64,000 bases of DNA. It comes from Longimicrobiales bacterium. Its GTDB lineage: Bacteria; Gemmatimonadota; Gemmatimonadetes; Longimicrobiales; Gaopeijiaceae. The DNA is taken from NCBI GenBank assembly GCA_965197725.1, contig CBDANQ010000017.1, forward strand, positions 1-64,000, read 5' to 3'. The notes under the pieces were generated by a model. That model was not told the DNA's origin. It did no database searches and saw only the letters and a list, made by a program, of their open reading frames with translations. The position numbers and the translations under genes were made by a program. This document shows positions 47,931 through 64,000 of the stretch, one piece after another. Positions within the stretch are counted from its first letter, which is position 1. Every line of letters starts with the position of its first letter.

Positions 47931-48986
47931 GTGGCTCCTCCCATTTTCTCGGCCCTGGCGCTCGTCGCCACCCTTCAGGCCGCCCCGACCGACTCGTCAC
48001 AGCTGGTCGTGCGGGAGGCATGGGTGATGGGCACGAGGCTCGGAGTGGTCGTGGAAGCAGCCTCAGTGGCCGAGGCGAGGAAGGCCACTGAGAACGTCAT
48101 CCGTGAGGTCGAACGGCTCGAGCGCATCTTGAGCACCTGGGATCCGCAGAGCGAAATGCACGCGGTCAACACCAGGGAGGTCGGCAGACCGATCGCCCCA
48201 GGTGCGGAACTCGCGTTCTTGCTCGCCGAGGCAGAGCGATACTCCCGTATCTCGGCGGCCGCCTTCGACGCTCGAATCGGAGCGCTCGTGGACGCGTGGG
48301 ACCTCCGCGGCGCTGGAGTCGTGCCGAGGGCGGGAGCGCTGCTGGCAGCCCGCAAAGCGACTGGGTCGAGTTCGATCTCGGTCGACGAGCGCACCGGTAT
48401 CGTCACGCGACACGTGGCCACCGCCTGGATCGACACTGGAGGCTTCGGAAAGGGAGCCGCACTTCGCGCTGCGGCCCATCGACTCGACTCGGTAGGTGTA
48501 GACCGGGCTCTCATCGACCTCGGCGGACAATTGTGGGCGCACGGGAGCGCGGATAAGCCATGGTCCGTGTACGTCGCTCACCCTACACAACGCGAACGTC
48601 CGGTCGCGCGACTCGACATCCACGGCGTTTCGGTCGCCACGAGCGGTACATCCGAACGCTTCATCGAGATCGACGGCGTGCGCTGGGGACACATCCTCGA
48701 CCCTCGGACCGGGCACCCTTCACCGGCATGGGGAAGCGTGACCGTCGTCAGCGCCGACCCGCTCGAAGCCGATGCCCTGGCCACCGCCCTCTATGTCATG
48801 GGCCCGCAGGCAGGTATGGCATGGGCCTCGGGTCACCCTGAGTTGGATGCGCTCTTCCTGGAGGCGGAGGGCAGTGCGTTGACCGCTACTTGGACTCGAG
48901 GCATGGAGCAGTGGTTGATCGACCCTCCCGTCTCCTCGACGCCTCACCCACAGACGCAAACAGAGCAAGACGCGAACCACCGATGA
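47931..48986 (+). CDS. apbE: FAD:protein FMN transferase
   Basis: MGT, DTGGFGKG, DLGG, ATSG..ERF, HILDPRTG, ADALATAL and a signal peptide. Confidence 0.93.
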   Translation: MAPPIFSALALVATLQAAPTDSSQLVVREAWVMGTRLGVVVEAASVAEARKATENVIREVERLERILSTWDPQSEMHAVNTREVGRPIAPGAELAFLLAEAERYSRISAAAFDARIGALVDAWDLRGAGVVPRAGALLAARKATGSSSISVDERTGIVTRHVATAWIDTGGFGKGAALRAAAHRLDSVGVDRALIDLGGQLWAHGSADKPWSVYVAHPTQRERPVARLDIHGVSVATSGTSERFIEIDGVRWGHILDPRTGHPSPAWGSVTVVSADPLEADALATALYVMGPQAGMAWASGHPELDALFLEAEGSALTATWTRGMEQWLIDPPVSSTPHPQTQTEQDANHR

Positions 48987-50266
48987 AGTGCATGGAAGCG
49001 TTGCCTTGCCGAGTGGCGAGCGCGTTCGCCGCCCTACTCATTTCGGTCGCGCCCGCACCGCGACTCGACGCACAAGACGCCGACTCTGTGCGCCTCGCGG
49101 CGCTGGAGCGCAGGATCGAGGCGGTCACGCGCGAGCTGGAGCGCATGCAGCTCGGCCGCGACGTCGTCGAGGCGGATTCTTCGATCCAGGGCCTCGGGCC
49201 CGCAGCTTCGAAGGTCTACCGGGTGAACCAGGGAGTCTCCCTCGGCGGCTACGGTGAGTTCCTATACGAGAACTTCGCAGCGGAACGGGAAGACGGCTCC
49301 CGTTCTGGCGCCCTCGACAGGCTCGACGCGCTGCGAGCGATCCTGTACGTCGGCTACAAGTTCAATGATCGTCTGCTCTTCAACTCGGAACTCGAGATCG
49401 AGCACGCTAAAGAAAGCTTCCTCGAGTTCGCGTACCTCGACTACCTGTTGACCGACCACGTCGGCGTTCGCGCTGGAATGCTGCTCGCGCCGTTGGGTCT
49501 GGTGAACGAGCTGCACGAGCCGCCCGTCTTCCTCGGCACCGAGCGCCCGGTTACCGAGAACCGGATCATCCCCACAACGTGGAGGGAGAACGGCATCGGC
49601 CTCTTCGGTAGCAGAGACGCTTTCTCCTGGCGCCTCTACCTGATGAACTCCTTCAACGGCGCCAAGTTCAGCGCTGCGGGCCTTCGGGGCGGTCGACAAA
49701 AGGGCGGAAAGGCGCTCGCCGAGGACATGGGCGTCGCGGGCCGCCTCGACTATACGGGTACGCCCGGGTTGCTTCTCGGCCTCTCGGCGTACAGTGGAGA
49801 GACGGCTCAAAGTCAGGAACTCAACGGCCAGGCCGTGGGCGGCCGTGTCCGCATCTTGGACGCGCACTTGGACTACAAGAGACGCGGTTGGGACGTTCGG
49901 GCGCTTGTCGCCGGCGCACAAGTGAGCGACGTAGCGGCGATGAATGCGCTCAACGGCCTGGAGGGAGCGGAAGGCATCGGAACGGACATGCTGGGCTGGT
50001 ACGTACAGGCGGGCTACGACGTGTTGCGCACCTCCCCCTCCGCCCATCAACTGATCCCTTACGTGCGCTACGAGAGGGTGAACACCCAGCGCGGGGTCGC
50101 GCAGGGCTTCTCGGCGAATCCGGCGAACGACCTCACAGTGACGTCCATCGGCGTGGCGTGGAGGCCGATTCCGCAGGCGATCGCCAAGCTCGGGTATCAA
50201 ATCCATTCGACAGCCGCGGACACCGGTGTGAACCAGGTGAATTTCTCGTTGGGATGGCTCTTTTGA
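48983..50266 (+). CDS. Outer-membrane porin with a short N-terminal coiled coil (OprO/OprP-like fold)
   Basis: Signal peptide, LAALERRIEAV, GGYGE, NSELEIEH, NELHEP, IIPTTW and terminal LGWLF. Confidence 0.82.
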   Translation: MKCMEALPCRVASAFAALLISVAPAPRLDAQDADSVRLAALERRIEAVTRELERMQLGRDVVEADSSIQGLGPAASKVYRVNQGVSLGGYGEFLYENFAAEREDGSRSGALDRLDALRAILYVGYKFNDRLLFNSELEIEHAKESFLEFAYLDYLLTDHVGVRAGMLLAPLGLVNELHEPPVFLGTERPVTENRIIPTTWRENGIGLFGSRDAFSWRLYLMNSFNGAKFSAAGLRGGRQKGGKALAEDMGVAGRLDYTGTPGLLLGLSAYSGETAQSQELNGQAVGGRVRILDAHLDYKRRGWDVRALVAGAQVSDVAAMNALNGLEGAEGIGTDMLGWYVQAGYDVLRTSPSAHQLIPYVRYERVNTQRGVAQGFSANPANDLTVTSIGVAWRPIPQAIAKLGYQIHSTAADTGVNQVNFSLGWLF

Positions 50267-50814
50267 CGTGCCTAAGGGTGGCGGCCGCGACCATCGCGGC
50301 GCTGGCTTGTGCTCCCTCGGTCTCGGCGCAGACGCTGACCCAAAACGAGGCGTTGACTCTGGCATTCGGGGACGCGCAGGTCGAGCGACGCACCGCGTTC
50401 TTGGATGACGACGAGATCTCGCGCGCGTCGGCGCTCGCGGGTCCCGACGTGAACGTCGAAGCGACCGTGGTGAGCTACTACGTCGCGCAGCGCGCGGCAG
50501 AGCCGGCCGGCGTAGCCTACTTCGACGCCGACCGAGTGCGCACGCTCCGGCAGGTGCTGATGATCGTGGTCGGTACCGATGGCCGGGTTGCTCGTGTCGA
50601 GACCGTCAGCTTCAGAGAACCGCCGGAGTACCGAGCCCCGGACGGATGGCTCATGCAGTTCCGCGGTCGTGTGCTCGATGACCAGCTCTCTCTCAAAGCA
50701 GGCATCGCCAACATCACCGGCGCCACGTTGACCGCCGGAGCGGTGACGCGAGCAACGCGCCGCGTAATGGCGCTCCACGCGATCATCGACCCCTTCGGTG
50801 CAAACGCGCGATGA
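50254..50814 (+). CDS. Exported FMN-binding domain protein (flavinylation target)
   Basis: Signal peptide, FREPPEY and NITGATLT, which matches [ST]GA[ST]. Confidence 0.85.
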   Translation: MALLTCLRVAAATIAALACAPSVSAQTLTQNEALTLAFGDAQVERRTAFLDDDEISRASALAGPDVNVEATVVSYYVAQRAAEPAGVAYFDADRVRTLRQVLMIVVGTDGRVARVETVSFREPPEYRAPDGWLMQFRGRVLDDQLSLKAGIANITGATLTAGAVTRATRRVMALHAIIDPFGANAR

Positions 50815-51368
50815 CCCGATTCCAGCGCTGGTTCCTGTACGGCTCGACGGCCGCGACCGCCGCGAGTGGCATCGCATACTTCGCCATGAAGCGCTTGCTC
50901 GAGCCCTCGGACCCGTGGGCAGTGATCAGCCACCCGCTGGAGCCCTGGGCACTCAAGGCACACATCCTCAGCGCACCACTGATGCTCTTCGCCGTGGGTC
51001 TGATCACGACACAACACATCTGGCGGAGCCTCAAGTCCAGCCTCCCGACCGGACGGCGCAGCGGCCAGCTCGCGTCGTATGTCCTCGGACCGCTCGTGCT
51101 GAGCGGATACCTGATCCAGGCGCTGACGTCGCCGCTGACGCTCGAGGTGCTCGCCTGGACGCACCTGGTGCTCGGGGTCATCGGCGCGGGGGCGATCGGC
51201 GTTCACCGGGAGGCGCTTCACGGGCATCGGAGACAGCGGAAGGGAGCGCTGCCCGTGCTGCAGCTTCCCCCCCAGCTGGAATCGCCGGAGACCGACCGCG
51301 TTAGTACTCCATTGGGGGGCGGCGCAGGTGCCAGTCGGTCTCGGACTGAAACGCCTGCGCGACGTTGA
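50811..51368 (+). CDS. Four-TM His-containing membrane protein (DUF4405/cytochrome b-like)
   Basis: Hydrophobic helices with KAH, QH, WTH and GVH. ATGA-coupled to the FMN-binding gene. Confidence 0.65.
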   Translation: MTRFQRWFLYGSTAATAASGIAYFAMKRLLEPSDPWAVISHPLEPWALKAHILSAPLMLFAVGLITTQHIWRSLKSSLPTGRRSGQLASYVLGPLVLSGYLIQALTSPLTLEVLAWTHLVLGVIGAGAIGVHREALHGHRRQRKGALPVLQLPPQLESPETDRVSTPLGGGAGASRSRTETPARR

Positions 51369-55591: not shown

Positions 55592-56824
55592 TTACTGCTT
55601 TCCCTGGAACGCCTCCAAGAGTCCGAGTACGTGGTCGATGTCAGCCTCCGTGTGGTCCGCGTTAATCTGGGTGCGGATCTCTTCGTCTCCCCGGGGCACC
55701 ACCGGGTACGTCAAACCGGTAGCGAGGACCCCGTTGTCGTACAGGTACTGGACGAGATCTCGCGTCTTCTGAGTGTCACGGACCATGAGCGGAACAACCG
55801 GATGCTCGCCCGGGATCGTCTCGATCCCGATCCGGCCCAGCCCGTCCTCGAAGCGTTTCGTCAACGACCGCAAGCGCTCGAGTAGTGCGACACCCTCATC
55901 ACTGTCGACGATTTCGAGAGAACGAAGCGCCGCGGCCGCTTCGCCCACCGTGATCGGGTTCGAGTAGATGTACATCTGCGAGGATTCCCGTAGAAACTGG
56001 ATCGTCGCCGCGTTTGCCGTCACGTAGCCGCCGTTCACTCCGAACGCTTTGCCGAGCGTGCCCACGAGGATGTCGACGGGAGCGCTGCCCGTGTGCTCCT
56101 CCGCTCCCCGGCCCGTGCGCCCGAAGGAGCCGACCCCGTGAGAGTCGTCGACGATGCTCACGACGTTCTCCTCGTAGTCCGCGTCATGGCGGACACACGC
56201 ATCCATGATCCGGTCTACGGGCGCGTGGTCGCCACGCATCGAGAAGACGCCGTCGGTCACGACGAGCGCCCGCTTCGCCCTTCCCTTCCAGTCCTGGAGC
56301 GCAGCGTCGAGCGCCGCGACGTCATTGTGCGAGTAGATCGCCTTGCCCGCCGGCCGACTCAGCCGCATCGCGTTGATGATGCAGTTGTGGTTGAGCTCGT
56401 CCGAGATCAGAACGGTCTCGGGCGTGACGAGGGGCGTCAGCGTGGAGACCACCGTGGCGTAGGCGGACGAGAAGATCATCGCCGCGTCCCGCGTGTGGAA
56501 GTCGGCGAGCTTCGCCTCAAGCGCTACGTGGGCTTGATACGTGCCGGAGATGAAGCGGACCGCCCCGGGGCCCGCCCCAAAATTTCGCGTTGCCTCTTCC
56601 TCGGCCGCGATGACCTCAGGCCGGAGACCCATGCCGAGATAAGAGTTGGAGTTGAGGCGGATGAACTCCTTGTCGCCCTCGCCCTGCAGGTGGACGCGCG
56701 GGCCACGATCAGCCTGTGCCGGCTTCACGGCGACCACGACGGTCTCCGTTCCCTTTGCGGTGCCCGTCCGCTCCAGGCTGGTGACGTGCGCATTCAGAAG
56801 GGTGCTCAGTCGATCGACAGGCAT
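55592..56824 (-). CDS. kbl: Glycine C-acetyltransferase (2-amino-3-ketobutyrate CoA ligase)
   Basis: NSYLG, AVRFISGT, SDELNH, TDGVFSM, DDSHG, GTLGKA. Adjacent to tdh. Confidence 0.9.
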   Translation of the reverse strand: MPVDRLSTLLNAHVTSLERTGTAKGTETVVVAVKPAQADRGPRVHLQGEGDKEFIRLNSNSYLGMGLRPEVIAAEEEATRNFGAGPGAVRFISGTYQAHVALEAKLADFHTRDAAMIFSSAYATVVSTLTPLVTPETVLISDELNHNCIINAMRLSRPAGKAIYSHNDVAALDAALQDWKGRAKRALVVTDGVFSMRGDHAPVDRIMDACVRHDADYEENVVSIVDDSHGVGSFGRTGRGAEEHTGSAPVDILVGTLGKAFGVNGGYVTANAATIQFLRESSQMYIYSNPITVGEAAAALRSLEIVDSDEGVALLERLRSLTKRFEDGLGRIGIETIPGEHPVVPLMVRDTQKTRDLVQYLYDNGVLATGLTYPVVPRGDEEIRTQINADHTEADIDHVLGLLEAFQGKQ

Positions 56825-56828
56825 GGCT

Positions 56829-57770
56829 TCACTCTTCTCTCAGCTGCATGAGCATGTCTCGGGTCGTCGCCGCGACGTCGAAGGCCGGCTCCCAGCCCCA
56901 CTCCCGTCGAGCGGCTGAGTCGTCGACACGGTCAGGCCACGACTCCGCGATCGACTGCCGAACCGGATCGATGTCGTAGTCGATGGTGAAGTCGGGCAGG
57001 TGCTTCCGGATCGCGGCGGCCAGCGTTTCAGGTGCCAGTTGCATGGCCGTCACGTTGAACGCATTGCGGTGGGTGAAGTTCGTCGCATCGGCCTCCATGA
57101 TGCCGATCGCCGCGCTCACCGCGTCTGGCATGTACATCATGTCGAGCTGGCTGTCGGGCCCGAGGAAACAAGTGTACTGCCCATGCGCGACGGCCTCATG
57201 GAAAATGTCGACCGCCCAGTCGGTCGTGCCCCCACCGGGCGGCGCACCGTACGAGATCAACCCGGGATACCGAACGCCGCGCGTGTCCACTCCGAAGCGC
57301 TGGTGGTAGTAGTCGCACAGAAGTTCACCGGCCACCTTGGTGATCCCGTAGATCGTGGCCGGCCGCATGAGCGTATCCTGCGGCGTTCGGTCCTTGGGCG
57401 TGTCCGGCCCGAACACCCCGATCGAGCTCGGCGTGAACACCGCGCATTTCTGTTCGCGGGCCACGTGGAGAACCGATTCCAGGCTAGCCATGTTCACGTG
57501 CCAGGCGAGGCGTGGGTCCCGCTCTCCCACGGCGGAAAGGATTGCCGCGAGGTGGTACACCGTGTCCGCGTCGTGGCGCATCACAGCCTGGCCGACTGCC
57601 CTGGCATCCGTGGTATCGAGCAACTGAAAAGGGCCGGACTCCGTGATCTCCGAACCGAGGTGGCGCACGTCGGTGGCGAGGACCCTGGAGGCCCCGTACC
57701 GCTCACGGAGGACTGGCAATAGCCACGAACCGATCTGCCCGCCGGCGCCGGTCACGAGGATTCGATTCAC
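56829..57770 (-). CDS. tdh: SDR-type L-threonine 3-dehydrogenase
   Basis: GAGGQIG, HLAAILSAVGE, PSSI, YGITK, PGGGTTD, MMYMPD, RQSIAESWP. Confidence 0.9.
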   Translation of the reverse strand: MNRILVTGAGGQIGSWLLPVLRERYGASRVLATDVRHLGSEITESGPFQLLDTTDARAVGQAVMRHDADTVYHLAAILSAVGERDPRLAWHVNMASLESVLHVAREQKCAVFTPSSIGVFGPDTPKDRTPQDTLMRPATIYGITKVAGELLCDYYHQRFGVDTRGVRYPGLISYGAPPGGGTTDWAVDIFHEAVAHGQYTCFLGPDSQLDMMYMPDAVSAAIGIMEADATNFTHRNAFNVTAMQLAPETLAAAIRKHLPDFTIDYDIDPVRQSIAESWPDRVDDSAARREWGWEPAFDVAATTRDMLMQLREE

Positions 57771-57889: not shown

Positions 57890-57915
57890 GTTACCTTCTC
57901 GCGACTTCGACCGTC
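57890..57915 (+). promoter_or_regulatory. Candidate ECF sigma promoter
   Basis: GTTACC-N16-CGTC, close to the ECF AAC/CGT-type pattern, about 55 nt before the first gene of the ECF locus. Confidence 0.55.
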
Positions 57916-57968
57916 TTGTCTCTGACGCCCACCCAACAACAGAGCGTCCAACCCTACGGAGACAAGAC

Positions 57969-59054
57969 ATGAAGACCCTGAAACGCAACCCGACGCTGGC
58001 CTTCCTCGGCATCTTGGCCGTGGCCGCGTGTGAGGATGGCACGCCCACGGCACCGATCGTGGACGAACTGTTCACCCTGGACGAGACGATCGAACTGGAG
58101 GTGCTCGCGAGCAAGGCGAATATCGCCGTCGCGCTAGAGCTCGCCGACGCGAGTAACAACGTCGCCAGTAGCCGCGGAGACGTTCGCGCCCAGGACGGTC
58201 GGGACTTCCACGACCGCGCGCGGCTGCGCTTCACAGACGCACAAGACGATCTGGCGCGCGGCAATCGTCGGGCGGCGCTCGACAAGGCCCGGGACGCTCG
58301 GCGGCTCGTCGTGCGCGCGATCGAGGCCACGGGAGGCGGTCGTGCCGTCGCCGCTATGGTCGAGAGGCTGGAGGCCACCGCTTCCACGATCGGCGAGGAT
58401 GTCGACTCCTTCGACAATCCGACTGACGTGGCGAGCGAGCTCAATCGGCTGGCGGTCTCGGCTCGCGACGCGCTCTCGCGCGGTGACACCACGCGTGCCG
58501 GCGAGCGCGTGATCTTCGGTGATCAGCGCACGCATGACCGCCGAGCCAACGACCGAAGCGGCCGTGACCGCAGAGGCCACGACCGGGGGAGTGACGTAGG
58601 CCCGCGCCGCGCGGAGCTCGCCATCGAGCTGGGCGCGACGGCGGTCGCGCTCGCTGAGCGGCTCTTGGAGAACGACGTCATCAACGACGTACGATCGAGG
58701 TTTCTCGCGACCGCTCACGAACTGCTCAAGAAGGCCCGAGCCGCGTACGCCGAGGGCCACTATGGCCGCGCTGTGCACTTCGCGGAGGCCGCAAGCTGGG
58801 CGGCGCTCAAGCCAGTGGTCCTCCCGGGCGGCATCACCGAAGAGGAGATGCGCGCGATGATCGACCTGGCGAACTCGCTCCACGAGGAGGCCCGAGCCGC
58901 GCTCGGCGACGCTCCGACCGAGATGCAGATCGCGATGTTCGAGCGGGCTGGACGGCTCATCGAGCTCGGCGAGAAGATGGTCGCGGAAGGCAAGCAAAGA
59001 GGCGTGGGACCCCTGTGGAGGGGTGCCGTGATCTCGAGTTGGCTGATCGGCTGA
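57969..59054 (+). CDS. Alpha-helical lipoprotein of unknown function
   Basis: MKTLKRNPTLAFLGILAVAAC lipobox, SD GGAG, Ala/Arg/Glu-rich helices and a DR-rich linker. Confidence 0.8.
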   Translation: MKTLKRNPTLAFLGILAVAACEDGTPTAPIVDELFTLDETIELEVLASKANIAVALELADASNNVASSRGDVRAQDGRDFHDRARLRFTDAQDDLARGNRRAALDKARDARRLVVRAIEATGGGRAVAAMVERLEATASTIGEDVDSFDNPTDVASELNRLAVSARDALSRGDTTRAGERVIFGDQRTHDRRANDRSGRDRRGHDRGSDVGPRRAELAIELGATAVALAERLLENDVINDVRSRFLATAHELLKKARAAYAEGHYGRAVHFAEAASWAALKPVVLPGGITEEEMRAMIDLANSLHEEARAALGDAPTEMQIAMFERAGRLIELGEKMVAEGKQRGVGPLWRGAVISSWLIG

Positions 59055-59115
59055 CGATTGGGTTCGGGCGTCGTCCCCGCTGGGGGGGCGGCGCCTGTCC
59101 CGATATCTTCCGTCC

Positions 59116-59667
59116 ATGGTGTCACCTGTGGAACGAACCGATGCGCAGGTCGTCCGCGATGTCTTGGCCGGAGACCGCGACGCTTATCGGCTCTTGGTGC
59201 GCAGGTACGGGGACGTGCTCTACGGCCACGCACTGCGGATGGCGGCGAGTCAGGACGACGCGGCCGACCTCGTGCAGCGTGCCCTGGTGCAGGGTTTCCA
59301 GAAACTCCGGACGTGTCGCGATGCCGACCGCGTCGGGGCCTGGCTCTTCCGCATCCTGGCCAACCTCTGCAAGGACCACATCCGTAGCCCGCGGCGCAGT
59401 GACATTTCCCTCACCGCCATGGCGGGCGTGCTTCGCGGCCGCTCCGACCCGGCATCGGATGCGGAGGGAGCGGAGGTGCGGAGCCGCGTGTGGGGTGCGC
59501 TCGACGCGCTCACGCCGGAGCAGCGTGAAGCGTTCGTGCTCAAGCACGTCGAGGGCCGGTCGTACGAGGAGATCGCTGCGGTGATGGACCTCTCGGTAGC
59601 AGCGCTGAAGATGAGGGTACACCGCGCACGCCAGGCGCTGCGCGGACTCTTGGAGGAATTCGCATGA
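59116..59667 (+). CDS. ECF-type RNA polymerase sigma factor
   Basis: DAADLVQ, AWLFRILANLC, LTPEQREAFVL, SYEEIA, KMRVHRAR. Confidence 0.95.
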   Translation: MVSPVERTDAQVVRDVLAGDRDAYRLLVRRYGDVLYGHALRMAASQDDAADLVQRALVQGFQKLRTCRDADRVGAWLFRILANLCKDHIRSPRRSDISLTAMAGVLRGRSDPASDAEGAEVRSRVWGALDALTPEQREAFVLKHVEGRSYEEIAAVMDLSVAALKMRVHRARQALRGLLEEFA

Positions 59668-60299
59668 CTGACGACCTGGATCGCTACCTCGACGGTGAGG
59701 TCGGAGCCGACGCGCTCGGTGCCACGTCCCGCGCCGATGCGGAAGCGTGGAACCGAATGGTCGAGTCCTTCCGCACTACCGCACCACGTGCGGTGGCGCC
59801 GGCCTGGCTCGAGCAAAAGGTCATGGGCGACATCGAAGCGCTGCCTCGCCCAGGGGCGTTGGCAAGAGCATTCGAGTGGCTCATGAACCCGACGCCCGTG
59901 CGCGTGTCGCCCCTCGCGACGGCGCTGGTGCTCGCGGCGTTCGCCGTCGTGCTCCTACTGCCCCAGGCCACGCCTGAGGTCGCTCGCCAAACGCCAGGCG
60001 TTGCGACGGCTGCCGGGGGCGCCGAACCCGTCGTATACGTCCAGTTCGTGCTGGAGGCTCCGGGGGCCACGTCGGTGTCGCTCGCCGGTGACTTCTCGGA
60101 TTGGGAGGCGTCGGTCACGCTTGCCGATCAAAACGAGGACGGCCTCTGGACTGCGCGTGTCCCCGTACGCCCCGGTGTTTACGGGTACATGTTCCTGATC
60201 GACGGAACTGAATGGCAGACCGATCCTCGGGCCGACCGCTACCAAGACGACGGTTTCGGCAACCGCAACGCGGTGCTCGCCGTTGCCGCGAGCGAGTAG
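59664..60299 (+). CDS. Putative anti-sigma factor with a TM helix and a C-terminal CBM48/AMPK glycogen-binding-like domain
   Basis: ATGA-coupled to the sigma gene. LDRYLDGE, TM, then APGATSVSLAGDFSDW...GLW...PGVYGYMFLIDG..W..DP...DDGFGNRNAVL. Confidence 0.85.
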   Translation: MTDDLDRYLDGEVGADALGATSRADAEAWNRMVESFRTTAPRAVAPAWLEQKVMGDIEALPRPGALARAFEWLMNPTPVRVSPLATALVLAAFAVVLLLPQATPEVARQTPGVATAAGGAEPVVYVQFVLEAPGATSVSLAGDFSDWEASVTLADQNEDGLWTARVPVRPGVYGYMFLIDGTEWQTDPRADRYQDDGFGNRNAVLAVAASE

Positions 60300-60300
60300 G

Positions 60301-61467
60301 ATGAGAAGCGCACCCGCCTCCCTCGTCATCGTCGTCCTGGCACTCGCGGGACCAGCGCCGGCGCTCTCCCAAAGCGAGGTCACCGTTGAGCTGGGAGCCT
60401 CGCAGGTAGGACCACCGTCAGGCGCCGACGCCGCGGCCGCGCGTTTCGCCGTCGGAGGCGTCCGGGCTTCAAGATATTCGAGCAATGGATCGGGATTGTT
60501 CACTTCGGTTCTGGTGGGCCGCTCGTTCGGCGCAACGACCGGGGCAGACTTCCTCTCCGGCACATTGGGCGGAACCCTGCGGCAGGACTGGGGCGGCGCC
60601 TGGACCGGTGGTTTCGACGTGCAAGCCCTCGGCTTCGAGGTGCGTGCGCCGTTCCCCTATCGGGCGCTCGCCGCCGAGGGAGGCCCGACGTTGCGGTACA
60701 GATCGGGGCGAGTTTCCGTGAAGGTTGACGGCCTGGTAGGTATCGGAACGTCCCGCCTTCAGCTCCGTAGGCGCTCCGATTCTCCGGTGGTGCGCACGAT
60801 CGACCATAATCTCTGGCGCGTGGGCGGGACCACCGAGCTCCTGGTCCGGTCCGGCAACACGTGGTTCGGCCTCGAGGGTGGCGTGCATCACACGAGCGGA
60901 GGTACGTACGCGACGGGCGGACTGAGGTTGATCCTGGGCGGGACGCAAGCTGCGGCGGAGCTGCGCATCGACGCGTGGGACACGCCCGGGGGCACCGAGA
61001 CGACCGGCGGCCTCGCCATCGTCATTCCGGTGACAGGCAGGTGGAGCTTGCGCGGCTTCTTTGGCAGGAGCGAGCCGGATCCGATGACGCTCGCCGAGCC
61101 AGGGAGCGGGAGCGGGGGCCTGCTGCTGGGGCGTACCGTGTACCGCGGCGGGACCACCACACGGAGAGCGTCCCTCTACCAGGTCGTCGGCAGCACCGAC
61201 ACCGGCGCTCGCGTCAGAATCAGCGTCATGGCTCCGGCGACGGCCACCCGCGTCGAAGTCATGGGCGACTTCAGCCTGTGGAACCCCGTGCCCATGTCGC
61301 GCGCGAGAGACCGATGGACCGCGGTGCTCGAGATCGGCAACGGAACCCATCACTTCGGGTTCCTGGTCGATGATGAATGGTTTGTACCGGACGATGCGAG
61401 CGATGTCGTTCCGGACGAGTGGGGCCGCCGGAGCGCGACCCTGGTAATCGAAGGAGTCGGATCATGA
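60301..61467 (+). CDS. Exported predicted beta-barrel protein with a C-terminal CBM48-like domain
   Basis: Signal peptide and Gly-rich alternating strands, then VEVMGDFSLW..PM....W......GTHHFGFLVDDEW...DEWG. Confidence 0.75.
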   Translation: MRSAPASLVIVVLALAGPAPALSQSEVTVELGASQVGPPSGADAAAARFAVGGVRASRYSSNGSGLFTSVLVGRSFGATTGADFLSGTLGGTLRQDWGGAWTGGFDVQALGFEVRAPFPYRALAAEGGPTLRYRSGRVSVKVDGLVGIGTSRLQLRRRSDSPVVRTIDHNLWRVGGTTELLVRSGNTWFGLEGGVHHTSGGTYATGGLRLILGGTQAAAELRIDAWDTPGGTETTGGLAIVIPVTGRWSLRGFFGRSEPDPMTLAEPGSGSGGLLLGRTVYRGGTTTRRASLYQVVGSTDTGARVRISVMAPATATRVEVMGDFSLWNPVPMSRARDRWTAVLEIGNGTHHFGFLVDDEWFVPDDASDVVPDEWGRRSATLVIEGVGS

Positions 61468-62138
61468 CACGCACCGCACTGACGCTGCTCACGCTTGCCG
61501 TACTCATGACGCCTGCCATGCACGCGCAGGAGTCTGCGCGGGAGAGAGCCCAGCGCACGCTCCCGGCTTCCGTCTTCGAGAACGTGTCGGCGCTGGCCGC
61601 CGACGTGAGCTCTTCGGGGATTCTCGACGAGCCGCTCTTCAACAAAGCCCTCGAGGGCGTGGCCAAGCGCGTGCCCGTGGCTCGGATCATGCCCGTGATC
61701 GAGGCGTACGCCGGGCGGCTCGGGGAGGCGCGGAACGCGTTTGGACCCACTGCGACGGTCCCGTTGCTCGTTGCCGGAGCCGACGCGCTCCAGCGGGGCG
61801 TCTCGTCCGATGCGCTCCGTTCACTCGACTCCGAGGCGGCCCGCTCGCCGATGGCGGTATTGGTACTAGCCGAACTCCATGAGACCGGCGTCCCCACGGA
61901 CCGGGCGTTGGCCGTGCTTTGTGAGGCGACCGCCCGACGGACTCGAGAGGACCGGATGCTCGACATCCCGGCCGACGTGCGGCGCCTCATCCGCCAGGGT
62001 CGCCCACCCTCGGACGCCGCCGACCAAGTGCGTCGCGGACTTCAGAGAGGGCGCGGCAACGGCGACGTCGGCCCGCCTGTGCCTCCCGGATCCGAGCCCA
62101 CGGACCGCGCCACGCGTACGCGGACGCGCGGACGGTGA
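61464..62138 (+). CDS. Exported helical hypothetical protein
   Basis: SD AAGGAG, ATGA coupling, signal peptide ..AMHA-Q, PLFNKALEGVAK and a Pro/Arg tail. Confidence 0.8.
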   Translation: MTRTALTLLTLAVLMTPAMHAQESARERAQRTLPASVFENVSALAADVSSSGILDEPLFNKALEGVAKRVPVARIMPVIEAYAGRLGEARNAFGPTATVPLLVAGADALQRGVSSDALRSLDSEAARSPMAVLVLAELHETGVPTDRALAVLCEATARRTREDRMLDIPADVRRLIRQGRPPSDAADQVRRGLQRGRGNGDVGPPVPPGSEPTDRATRTRTRGR

Positions 62139-62230: not shown

Positions 62231-62292
62231 TCAGTCGCCTGCCTCCAGGTAGATCTCCCCGCCCCTGTCGCGGAACTCCGTAGCCATGTCAA
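62231..62292 (-). pseudogene. thiC: Probable 3' scar of phosphomethylpyrimidine synthase
   Basis: DMATEFRDRGGEIYLEAGD* resembles the ThiC C-terminal motif (xMSxxFRxxGGEIY) as I recall it. It begins right at the frdD stop. Confidence 0.55.
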
Positions 62293-62643
62293 CTAGCCAA
62301 CCCCCCAGAGCAGGTAGGCGCCGACGACCGTGCCCGCCGTCGCGATCCCGTAGGTCACCACTGCGATGAGCTGGTTGAGATGGGAGAGCTGAAGACCGTC
62401 GTAGAGCGTGTACCGGAACCGGTGCGCCCAGTGGAACCAGCACAGCGAGACAAGAACCAACAGACCCAGCCGCGTCAGCGGGTGTCTCACCAGCGCTTGA
62501 AGGTCCCCAAAAGCGGCGCCCTCCACCCACCCGAGGGGCAGGGCAATGAATAGCACTAGGATCAGCGCCGGAAGAAAGAGCGCCGAGGCCATCCCCCCAC
62601 CACCGAACAGTACCCAGATGATGGGCTCCCTGGACCGCCGCAT
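62293..62643 (-). CDS. frdD: Fumarate reductase subunit D
   Basis: RSREPIIWVLFGGGGM..AL..P and WFHWAHR. Confidence 0.9.
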   Translation of the reverse strand: MRRSREPIIWVLFGGGGMASALFLPALILVLFIALPLGWVEGAAFGDLQALVRHPLTRLGLLVLVSLCWFHWAHRFRYTLYDGLQLSHLNQLIAVVTYGIATAGTVVGAYLLWGVG

Positions 62644-63056
62644 CACGACCTCCAGATCAGTACCCAGGCCACGAAACCCGTGCACACGACCCATGCCGCG
62701 TAGTGGCCGAGGAGCACAGCCGAGGCAGGCACCATCCGACCTCCGATCTTCACGACGATCGCCATGGGGGCCAGGTTGAGCCAGGTAATCGTGTGGAAGA
62801 GCACAACGAAGAGCACGAGCACATGAGCCGCGAGCACGACCGGGCGCGAAAGCCAGTCCATGACCTCCAAATATGCGCCTTCTCCCCGATCCAACGCGAG
62901 CACGAGCACCACTAGAAGGACGGCCGAGTAGGCGACTAATACGCTGGTCAGCTCGCGGCCGATGAACGCCGCATACGATCGCTTGCGTAGCCACCAGAAG
63001 ATCGGAACCTCACTCCGGTACCACTTGGGGTGGTACGGCCGGTGCTCGGGGTTCAG
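62643..63056 (-). CDS. frdC: Fumarate reductase subunit C, probable CTG start
   Basis: [17 protein letters not shown] and [10 protein letters not shown]. Confidence 0.88.
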
Positions 63057-63796
63057 GATGACCCCCCCGGCATGAGCAGAGATCTGAAGAAGTCCAGGGT
63101 GGCGGAAACCTTGTAGCGCTGGATGGCTTCGGCCGGGTCCACGTTCTTGGGGCAGACCTCCGAGCACTCGCCGACCAGTGTACACCCCCAGATCCCGTCG
63201 TGCTGAGAGAGCACGTCCATCCTCTCCTGAGCGCCCTCATCACGGGAGTCCAAGTTGTAGCGCTGAGCGAGCGCGATGGCTGCCGGACCGATGAAGTCGG
63301 GCTCGATGCGGTAGATGGGGCAGGCGGAATAGCACAGCATGCAATTGATGCACATCGAATACTGCTTGTACTCGGCGAGCTCCGCCGGCGTCTGTAGGTA
63401 TTCCCCCTCATCGAGAGGCTTCTCTTCGTCCCGAACGATCCAAGCCTTTACGTCTGTGAGCTTGCCCATGAAGTCCGTGATGTCTCCGACCAGATCGCGG
63501 ATCACGGGAAAGCCCGTGAGTGGCTCGATTCGGATGGGACCGGGGAGCAGGCTCTCCAGGTACGTGGCGCACGTCAGCACGGGACGCCCGTTGGCCATCA
63601 TGCCGCAGCTTCCGCACACACCCATTCGGCACGCCCATCGGTAGGACAGACTCCCGTCGAGATCGTCCTTGATGTAGTTGAGCGCGTCGAGGATCATCCA
63701 CTCCGGGTGGAACGGGACCTCGAAGCTCTCGAACGTGGGCTCCGTTTCGTCTTCGGGTCGGTAACGGAACACTTCTACAGTAACGGCTTCAGGCAT
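63053..63796 (-). CDS. frdB: Fumarate reductase iron-sulfur subunit
   Basis: [32 protein letters not shown]. Confidence 0.95.
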
Positions 63797-63803
63797 CGGA
63801 CGC

Positions 63804-64000
63804 CTACCTCCCGTAGACTCTTTCGCCCGGTGGCCATTTCGTGACGGTCACCGGTTTGAACTCGACTCCTGGGCTGCCCTCCTGCGAGCGGTAGGCCAGG
63901 GAGTGAGCGAGGAACTCGTCGTCGTCGCGCTCGGGATAGTCGGTCCTTTGGTGTGCTCCTCGGGACTCCGTGCGGGCCCGAGCCGACTCCAGGACAACGC
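63804..64000 (-). CDS. frdA: Fumarate reductase flavoprotein, C-terminal part (runs off the window)
   Basis: My translation: [27 protein letters not shown]...[12 protein letters not shown]. Confidence 0.9.

Follow-up and report, generated by a model that had tools for sequence, protein, structure and literature searches.

A phylum-wide ECF sigma operon of Gemmatimonadota with CBM48 domains on its anti-sigma factor and on a predicted outer-membrane barrel: a candidate self-activating switch

The known relays from the outer membrane to a sigma factor rely on TonB-energised receptors or on proteases that read misfolded proteins. In FecI-FecR-FecA and in the TonB-dependent transducers of Pseudomonas, a sigma factor is combined with an inner-membrane anti-sigma factor and an outer-membrane barrel, the signalling domain lying N-terminal to the barrel; the Pseudomonas transducers, according to the title of PMC11637429, shield the anti-sigma factor from proteolysis. 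In the autoregulated operons of RpoE-RseA-RseB (E. coli) and AlgU-MucA-MucB (Pseudomonas), a periplasmic protein caps a single-pass anti-sigma factor, and in SigI-RsgI of Clostridium thermocellum, which controls cellulosome enzymes, the anti-sigma factor carries an extracytoplasmic module of carbohydrate-binding type. Here we describe an operon of an extracytoplasmic function (ECF) sigma factor from a Longimicrobiales bacterium, located at 57969-62138 (+) of a 64,000-nucleotide stretch of contig CBDANQ010000017.1 (the window); its closest named relatives are Gemmatimonadota. Five same-strand genes encode a lipoprotein, the sigma factor, an anti-sigma factor, a barrel protein and, last in the operon, an exported helical protein labelled HEL (Table 1). 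We propose, at about an even chance of being right, that the operon is a self-activating ECF switch in which two periplasmic CBM48 domains are docks that bind HEL as an adaptor rather than glycogen.

An anti-sigma factor of this type is already in print. The passage on ECF278s1 of Desulfovibrio and Syntrophobacter (Casas-Pastor et al. 2021, PMC7826278 supplement) describes an anti-sigma factor with an AMPK glycogen-recognition domain and offers glycogen sensing as a guess, for which that passage cites no experimental study. As described there, the anti-sigma factor is encoded at position +1 and is single-pass; here the +1 gene is ATGA-coupled and its product has one hydrophobic segment. The AMPK-type domain likewise lies on the extracytoplasmic side, PF16561 being C-terminal to the helix and its side predicted. 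In the promoter, the -35 element GTGAC agrees with GT[GT]AC, whereas the -10 element GTATA differs from GTCT[AT] or [GC]TC[TAC]. Unlike the present operon, ECF278s1 comes from a different phylum, and no barrel, HEL or lipoprotein is named in that passage. The likeness to ECF278 is one of anti-sigma architecture and -35 element. The barrel, HEL and their fusions are not found in print, in that a literature search, with most subscription papers outside its coverage, returned no paper on barrel-CBM48, HEL or their fusion. An initial annotation of the window had known of no characterised system of this architecture; this stands for experimental characterisation, but not for the anti-sigma type, which ECF278s1 had already brought into print together with the glycogen guess.

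As in FecI-FecR-FecA, sigma factor, anti-sigma factor and outer-membrane barrel occur as one unit, and in natural fusions HEL lies N-terminal to the barrel, placed to contact the anti-sigma factor as in FecA-type transducers. Unlike FecA, the barrel has 14 strands and a plug-less model, the putative signalling domain (HEL) is usually a separate protein, and the proposed docks are CBM48 domains; furthermore, the anti-sigma factor gave no Pfam match to the FecR family at E <= 1, its C-terminal domain being CBM48. With RpoE-RseA-RseB and AlgU-MucA-MucB the operon shares the sigma factor, the single-pass anti-sigma factor, a co-encoded periplasmic protein and the presence of the site-2 protease family, M50 (RseP-family) proteases being encoded in the genome. 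However, HEL differs from RseB and MucB in being all-helical and without a family match, though it may still work like RseB, and the RseA and MucA systems differ in that here a folded CBM48 forms the periplasmic part of the anti-sigma factor, a dedicated barrel is present and no large regulon was found. The carbohydrate-binding-type module on the anti-sigma factor recalls SigI-RsgI, yet SigI is not a typical ECF sigma factor and no glycoside hydrolase target was seen here. By analogy, the system may be regarded as combining the capping seen in RseA-RseB with signalling of the FecA type, but it qualifies as a member of neither.

The open reading frames and junctions are as the initial annotation described them: the genes are co-oriented, ATGA overlaps join the sigma and anti-sigma genes (59664-59667) and the barrel and HEL genes (61464-61467), and a 1-nt gap (60300) separates the anti-sigma and barrel genes. 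Its claim of a CBM48-like domain on both the anti-sigma factor and the barrel protein is borne out by Pfam, in which residues 134-209 of the former (E 2e-10) and 315-378 of the latter (E 2e-9) lie above the cut-off of PF16561 (AMPK1_CBM). These are the only two matches of this family in the 3.0-Mb assembly, which is 88.9% complete. The identity of the barrel domain was assigned by profile and model, that of the anti-sigma domain by profile, and W147, W184, F198 and N202 are conserved in the alignment of the latter. The sigma factor matches Sigma70_r2 (E 2e-14) and r4_2 (E 2e-17). The zinc anti-sigma (ZAS) motif HxxxCxxC was found in none of 170 N-terminal segments, and the cytoplasmic N-domain is thus of a kind without it. 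The Pfam scan of the five proteins showed no glycoside hydrolase and no TonB-dependent receptor, again in agreement with the annotation. Signal peptides were judged by eye, without a predictor, those of HEL and the lipoprotein falling below the hydropathy threshold used.

The fourth gene product, which had been put forward as an outer-membrane barrel, does model as one. The AlphaFold2 model (mean predicted local distance difference test score, pLDDT, 88.8, with 119 homologues as input) has a 14-strand fold of CymA/OmpG type without a plug domain, and the nearest barrels by VIA-align are CymA (Z 19.9, root-mean-square deviation 3.4, 242 residues aligned) and OmpG (Z 18.9, 3.5, 228 aligned). The predicted likeness to CymA and OmpG (PDB 4d5b, 2f1c) is that of a 14-strand, monomer-type barrel; unlike them, the protein carries a CBM48 tail, for which their entries among the structural matches report no counterpart, identity is 9%, and a shared strand number does not mean a shared substrate. 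The CymA match was accordingly rejected as proof of substrate, OmpG being 1 Z unit away and the match resting on strand number. A G-x4-D-P loop motif is kept in the barrel family (G255 92%, D260 92%; n=128), and the CBM part matches the N-domain of an amylase (4aef, Z 13.2) and the AMPK CBMs (Z ~11.7). Barrels of this even-stranded type have both termini in the periplasm. Because the even strand number places the barrel termini there, both CBM48 domains are predicted to be periplasmic; barrel topology and the anti-sigma helix agree in this with the orientation first suggested.

Of the 301 genomes tallied for the phylum, 194 carry PF16561, but in the family of the source genome only 4 of 47 do; the tally includes the unpublished genome G156, which no other result here draws on. 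Around PF16561 matches, 120 regions were fetched, a set that is selected by that domain and contains kin that are not independent; after removal of 13 truncated regions, 5 ParA-CBM48 fusions and 2 regions without an anti-sigma gene before counting, 100 loci were left. Among these, HEL is present at 99, the sigma factor at 98, a second CBM48 at 83 and a match to the barrel profile at 79. The parts therefore recur across the phylum, as the co-occurrence claim of the initial annotation had it, and the partner that accompanies the anti-sigma factor most constantly is HEL rather than the second CBM48, which favours the proposed adaptor role. In a wider set of 208 loci, 80 of them from metagenomes, the gene order is variable, with the barrel gene on either side of HEL, in divergent orientation or lacking, while the parts persist. 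A second HEL gene directly follows the barrel gene at 6 of the 208, and two regions carry barrel-CBM48 and HEL with the anti-sigma gene absent. A plasmid search gave matches to the CBM part alone, in 6 records. The operon is real, phylum-wide and experimentally uncharacterised.

HEL itself passes no Pfam family cut-off and showed no RseB or MucB match, and a fold search found no clear natural match, the only hits, with Z no higher than 8.1, being designed repeats and helical bundles of a generic kind. Its family is large, with 2104 clusters at E <= 1e-10; atlas searches with HEL and the lipoprotein returned only nameless Gemmatimonadota clusters, apart from a single DUF4197 name assigned automatically at 0.89. 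Five natural fusions, in at least two clusters, join a signal peptide, HEL, the barrel and CBM48 in this order: two stand among the best 150 representatives of HEL, and three are further relatives at 72-84% identity. Profiles score 148-155 bits for the HEL part of the fusions and 88-96 bits for a barrel-type CBM, and hhalign shows the middle part to be a homologue of the barrel family (probability 96.8, E 2.5e-10). Because the fusions place HEL N-terminal to the barrel, where the signalling domain lies in FecA-type transducers, HEL appears to behave like a detached signalling domain. A single 756-codon frame at L068:4220-6487 (-) also contains HEL and barrel-CBM48, with a signal-like segment between them; it is either a fusion or a case of a lost stop codon.

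Complex prediction of HEL with the barrel CBM48 gave a score of 0.54, against 0.02 for the best control, with identical contacts (100%) between runs and a partner pLDDT of at least 75. This is weak support: in calibration the mark was passed by 116 of 157 solved pairs and 2 of 215 mismatched pairs, yet at scores of 0.60 or lower by only 18 of the 157, together with both of the passing mismatches. The prediction was nevertheless given some weight because the fusions had made the pairing likely beforehand. Binding of HEL to the barrel CBM48 is therefore predicted, with weak support, and we infer that HEL may bind the anti-sigma CBM48 as well. Co-evolution analysis placed no pair of interest above clade-shuffled controls, in an underpowered set of 117-172 paired rows (effective depth 99-116); a slight excess between sigma and anti-sigma factors was set aside as a likely artefact of overlapping DNA in the chosen segments.

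Glycogen binding by AMPK, according to passages in PMC2642990, requires W100, K126, W133, L146 and T148, and mutation of K126 markedly lowers it. When residues were mapped through an alignment with AMPK beta-2, lysine or arginine at the K126 position was found in 0 of 200 anti-sigma domains and 1 of 132 barrel domains, so that the binding lysine is lost in 200/200 and 131/132, respectively. As an internal control from the same phylum, all 5 of 5 ParA-CBM48 fusions keep lysine or arginine there. Enzymes of alpha-glucan metabolism are also missing: the source genome, at its completeness of 88.9%, has no match to GH13, GT5, phosphorylase, GH57, GH31, GH15 or GH77, GH13 is absent from 9 of 42 PF16561-positive genomes, and 4 of these 9, which are operon-bearing and 94-96% complete, showed no GT5, GH57 or GH31 either. 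The neighbours of the operon and the genes sharing its promoter are lipoproteins and housekeeping genes, with no amylases or sugar transporters (22 proteins scanned with Pfam, the rest judged by eye). The alpha-glucan sensing put forward by the initial annotation is weakened by the loss of the lysine and the lack of alpha-glucan enzymes in the source and four further genomes.

The proposed switch would operate as follows. At rest, HEL would sit on the anti-sigma CBM48 and shield the anti-sigma factor, by analogy with RseB on RseA, and the barrel CBM48 would serve as a second dock, anchoring HEL to the outer membrane. If the barrel changes, in pore ligand or assembly state, HEL may then pass from one dock to the other; an anti-sigma factor left without its cap would be cleaved by a site-1 protease and then by an RseP-type protease, and the released sigma factor would transcribe the operon and the lipoprotein gene from GT[GT]AC-N18-GTCT.

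Several observations weigh against this proposal, and some of them are shared with the rival account in which maltodextrins or cyclodextrins pass through a CymA-like barrel to the CBM48 domains, where their binding, perhaps by displacing HEL, frees the sigma factor. The tryptophans equivalent to W100 and W133, between which the sugar is sandwiched in AMPK and which are the sugar-binding aromatics to which the initial annotation had drawn attention, are retained in both domains, in the anti-sigma factor (W147 205/205, W184 193/205) as in the barrel protein (W327 132/132, W360 125/132), and the retained pair fits sugar binding equally well; in the anti-sigma domain the Asn of the site is also kept (N202, 170/205). 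The closest fold of the barrel is CymA, described in passages of PMC8049027 as a passive cyclodextrin channel. GH13 occurs in 33 of 42 PF16561-positive genomes (several with a partial match only) against 0 of 13 negative ones, and within the source family in 4/4 positive against 0/13 negative genomes, which as kin are not independent, and the source genome is only 88.9% complete. The same idea has also been proposed for ECF278s1 (PMC7826278, supplement passage). Still other points bear on the adaptor itself: the fusions are small in number, possibly with an origin in only one or two lineages, the score of the complex is a weak one, a pass at the 0.54 level being more often wrong unless the pairing was likely beforehand, and 16 of the 208 loci consist of sigma factor, anti-sigma factor and HEL without a barrel, which is therefore not always needed. 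Against glucan sensing stand the lost lysine, the enzyme-less genomes, the neighbours of the operon, the single Z unit between CymA and OmpG, a match made by strand number, and the existence of CBM48s, including one subfamily, that lack starch binding (passages in PMC8040265). On balance, glucan sensing by the operon is doubtful.

That the aromatic cleft is retained while polar residues have changed would also suit a different ligand, such as a non-alpha glycan, a lipid-linked sugar or a peptide, which the barrel would import and the CBM48 clefts would sense, HEL being a chaperone or co-sensor rather than a competing ligand. The CBM48 subfamily that lost starch binding (PMC8040265, same passages) and the conserved G-x4-D-P loop of the barrel are consistent with such a ligand, but the operon has no recurring neighbours with catabolic or transport functions, and the fusions and the weak complex score link HEL physically to the barrel CBM48; we consider this account unlikely. 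Direct pairing of the two CBM48 domains across the periplasm, from barrel to anti-sigma factor and with no adaptor, had been suggested initially and would suit paralogous domains in the same predicted compartment whose genes are often adjacent. However, no evidence for it was found: the constant partner is HEL (99/100) and not the barrel (second CBM48 83/100), HEL is kept at loci that lack the barrel, it is HEL that the fusion links to the barrel, and linkage, fusions and the weak complex prediction together favour HEL, to which the initial annotation had given no part in the relay; direct pairing is highly improbable.

The final step of the proposed switch, transcription by the operon's own sigma factor, has support from a promoter motif, GT[GT]AC-N17-19-[GC]TC[TAC]. 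A first enumeration of bipartite motifs yielded nothing that exceeded shuffles; this motif was spotted by eye and then tested. It stands upstream of the first gene at 31 of 38 training loci, the set from which it was derived, against a shuffle mean of 1.3, and in a held-out test scored at least 14 bits at 70 of 98 loci against 1 of 98 coding controls. The operon's own site, which was excluded from training, is the best in the genome at 24.6 bits, with the next at 20.7. The sigma factor that recognises this promoter is likely the operon's own, and the operon would thus be autoregulated. A wide regulon was considered and is not supported, genome-wide position weight matrix matches numbering 375/95/14 against 406-468/98-121/15-28 in shuffles (above 11/14/17 bits); besides the operon, the top sites are, by crude gene calls, mostly intragenic or without a clear target. 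The strict promoter pattern, outside which weaker or spacer-variant sites fall, likewise showed no excess between 16 PF16561-positive and 12 negative genomes. Since the motif is not in excess genome-wide, the output seems to be mostly local in the source genome.

Divergent copies of the motif face lipoprotein-like genes, small exported proteins and proteins with sigma region 2 only. Short proteins with sigma-70 region 2 alone are encoded at L052:7365-7703 and L055:4570-5034, with similar ones at L084, L086, L089 and L099; they are divergent from the operon and in several loci lie behind a motif copy, and are candidate sigma-mimic anti-anti-sigma factors. Matches in RNA runs comprise small shares and contigs from relatives, which extend over the flanking genes as well, and do not show expression or start site.

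The lipoprotein is likely the main output gene of the operon. It passes no Pfam cut-off and has no PDB relative at E < 0.01, and an HEPN/AbiV identity was rejected as the matches were weak and below cut-off. Its lipobox Cys21 is present in at least 90% of 30 relatives, and the lipoprotein is lineage-specific, its family occurring at 2 of the 100 genome loci. In other lineages, DUF4382 lipoproteins adjoin the operon (10 of 22 hand-picked neighbour proteins scanned; loci L005, L048, L052, L053, L054, L066, L072, L076, L077 and L078). Between the lipoprotein and sigma genes lies a hairpin at which no terminator-like site was found; a hairpin of different sequence stands in the same place in 4/4 relatives folded (z -3.4 to -5.5). 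It is likely an element of mRNA stability or attenuation that favours the lipoprotein message.

Table 1. Positions in the window of the operon's genes, domains and regulatory elements
Feature	Position	Strand	Basis or remarks
Predicted ECF promoter, GTTAC (-35), 18 nt, GTCTT (-10)	57890-57917	+	motif and held-out test
Predicted lipoprotein, 361 aa, alanine-rich, likely helical	57969-59054	+	lipobox Cys21; no known family
GC-rich hairpin without U tail, lipoprotein-sigma gap	59057-59104	+	-41.4 kcal/mol, z -4.1
ECF sigma factor, 183 aa	59116-59667	+	Pfam Sigma70_r2, r4_2; TIGR02937 above cut-off
Predicted single-pass anti-sigma factor, 211 aa	59664-60299	+	Pfam, hydropathy, alignment
Anti-sigma transmembrane helix	~59895-59984	+	sole hydrophobic segment, residues 78-107
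Anti-sigma CBM48, predicted periplasmic	~60033-60290	+	C-terminal to helix; PF16561
Predicted 14-strand outer-membrane beta-barrel protein, 388 aa, C-terminal CBM48	60301-61467	+	AlphaFold2, Foldseek, VIA-align, 203 homologues
Barrel part	~60367-61152	+	residues 23-284, 14 long strands
Barrel-protein CBM48, predicted periplasmic	~61177-61455	+	beta-sandwich, residues 293-385
HEL, predicted exported all-helical protein, 224 aa	61464-62138	+	AlphaFold2 pLDDT 96.9
HEL conserved core	61530-62048	+	K-A-x-E-G-x-A-K motif; HEL also has a Pro/Gly/Arg-rich tail

Some relatives of the operon are reduced. The barrel is absent, or has shrunk to a CBM remnant, at L071:6053-6919 (-), L070, L074 and L075, which belong to a single family, and L075 has neither a HEL match nor a clear promoter; module decay is a possible explanation. 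Elsewhere, at L079:6375-7478 (-), L080, L158, L159 and L160, an ATPase of the ParA/Soj family carries a C-terminal CBM48 (L079 by Pfam, the rest by sequence), which is a separate and probably cytoplasmic use of the domain.

In the window, two genes at 55592-57770 (-), presumably a glycine C-acetyltransferase and a threonine dehydrogenase, are divergent from the operon, and the same pair lies upstream at L001, L002 and L004. The genes at 62231-64000 (-) converge on the end of the operon, and we take them to be a fumarate reductase/succinate dehydrogenase operon with an iron-sulphur subunit and small membrane anchors. Further upstream, 48890-51368 (+) encodes a barrel-like protein with a signal peptide (48890-50266) and then two further genes, presumably for an FMN-binding-like protein and a small membrane protein and possibly an iron or electron-transfer unit.

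Taken more broadly, the operon may represent a TonB-independent class of cell-surface signalling, in which a small 14-strand barrel is the outer-membrane receptor and two repurposed CBM48 docks pass HEL, which some lineages have fused to the barrel, between the membranes and so control an ECF sigma factor throughout a large part of the phylum; this wider proposal is tentative and more apt to prove wrong than right. If true, this would add one more route by which signals pass from the outer membrane to a sigma factor, made up of a small barrel, two CBM48 docks and an adaptor that shuttles between them. With four core genes and one defined promoter, the system is compact enough for laboratory rebuilding. 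Many annotations of 'glycogen-binding domain' or CBM48 in Gemmatimonadota are probably parts of signalling systems and, as such, are not evidence of starch or glycogen use.

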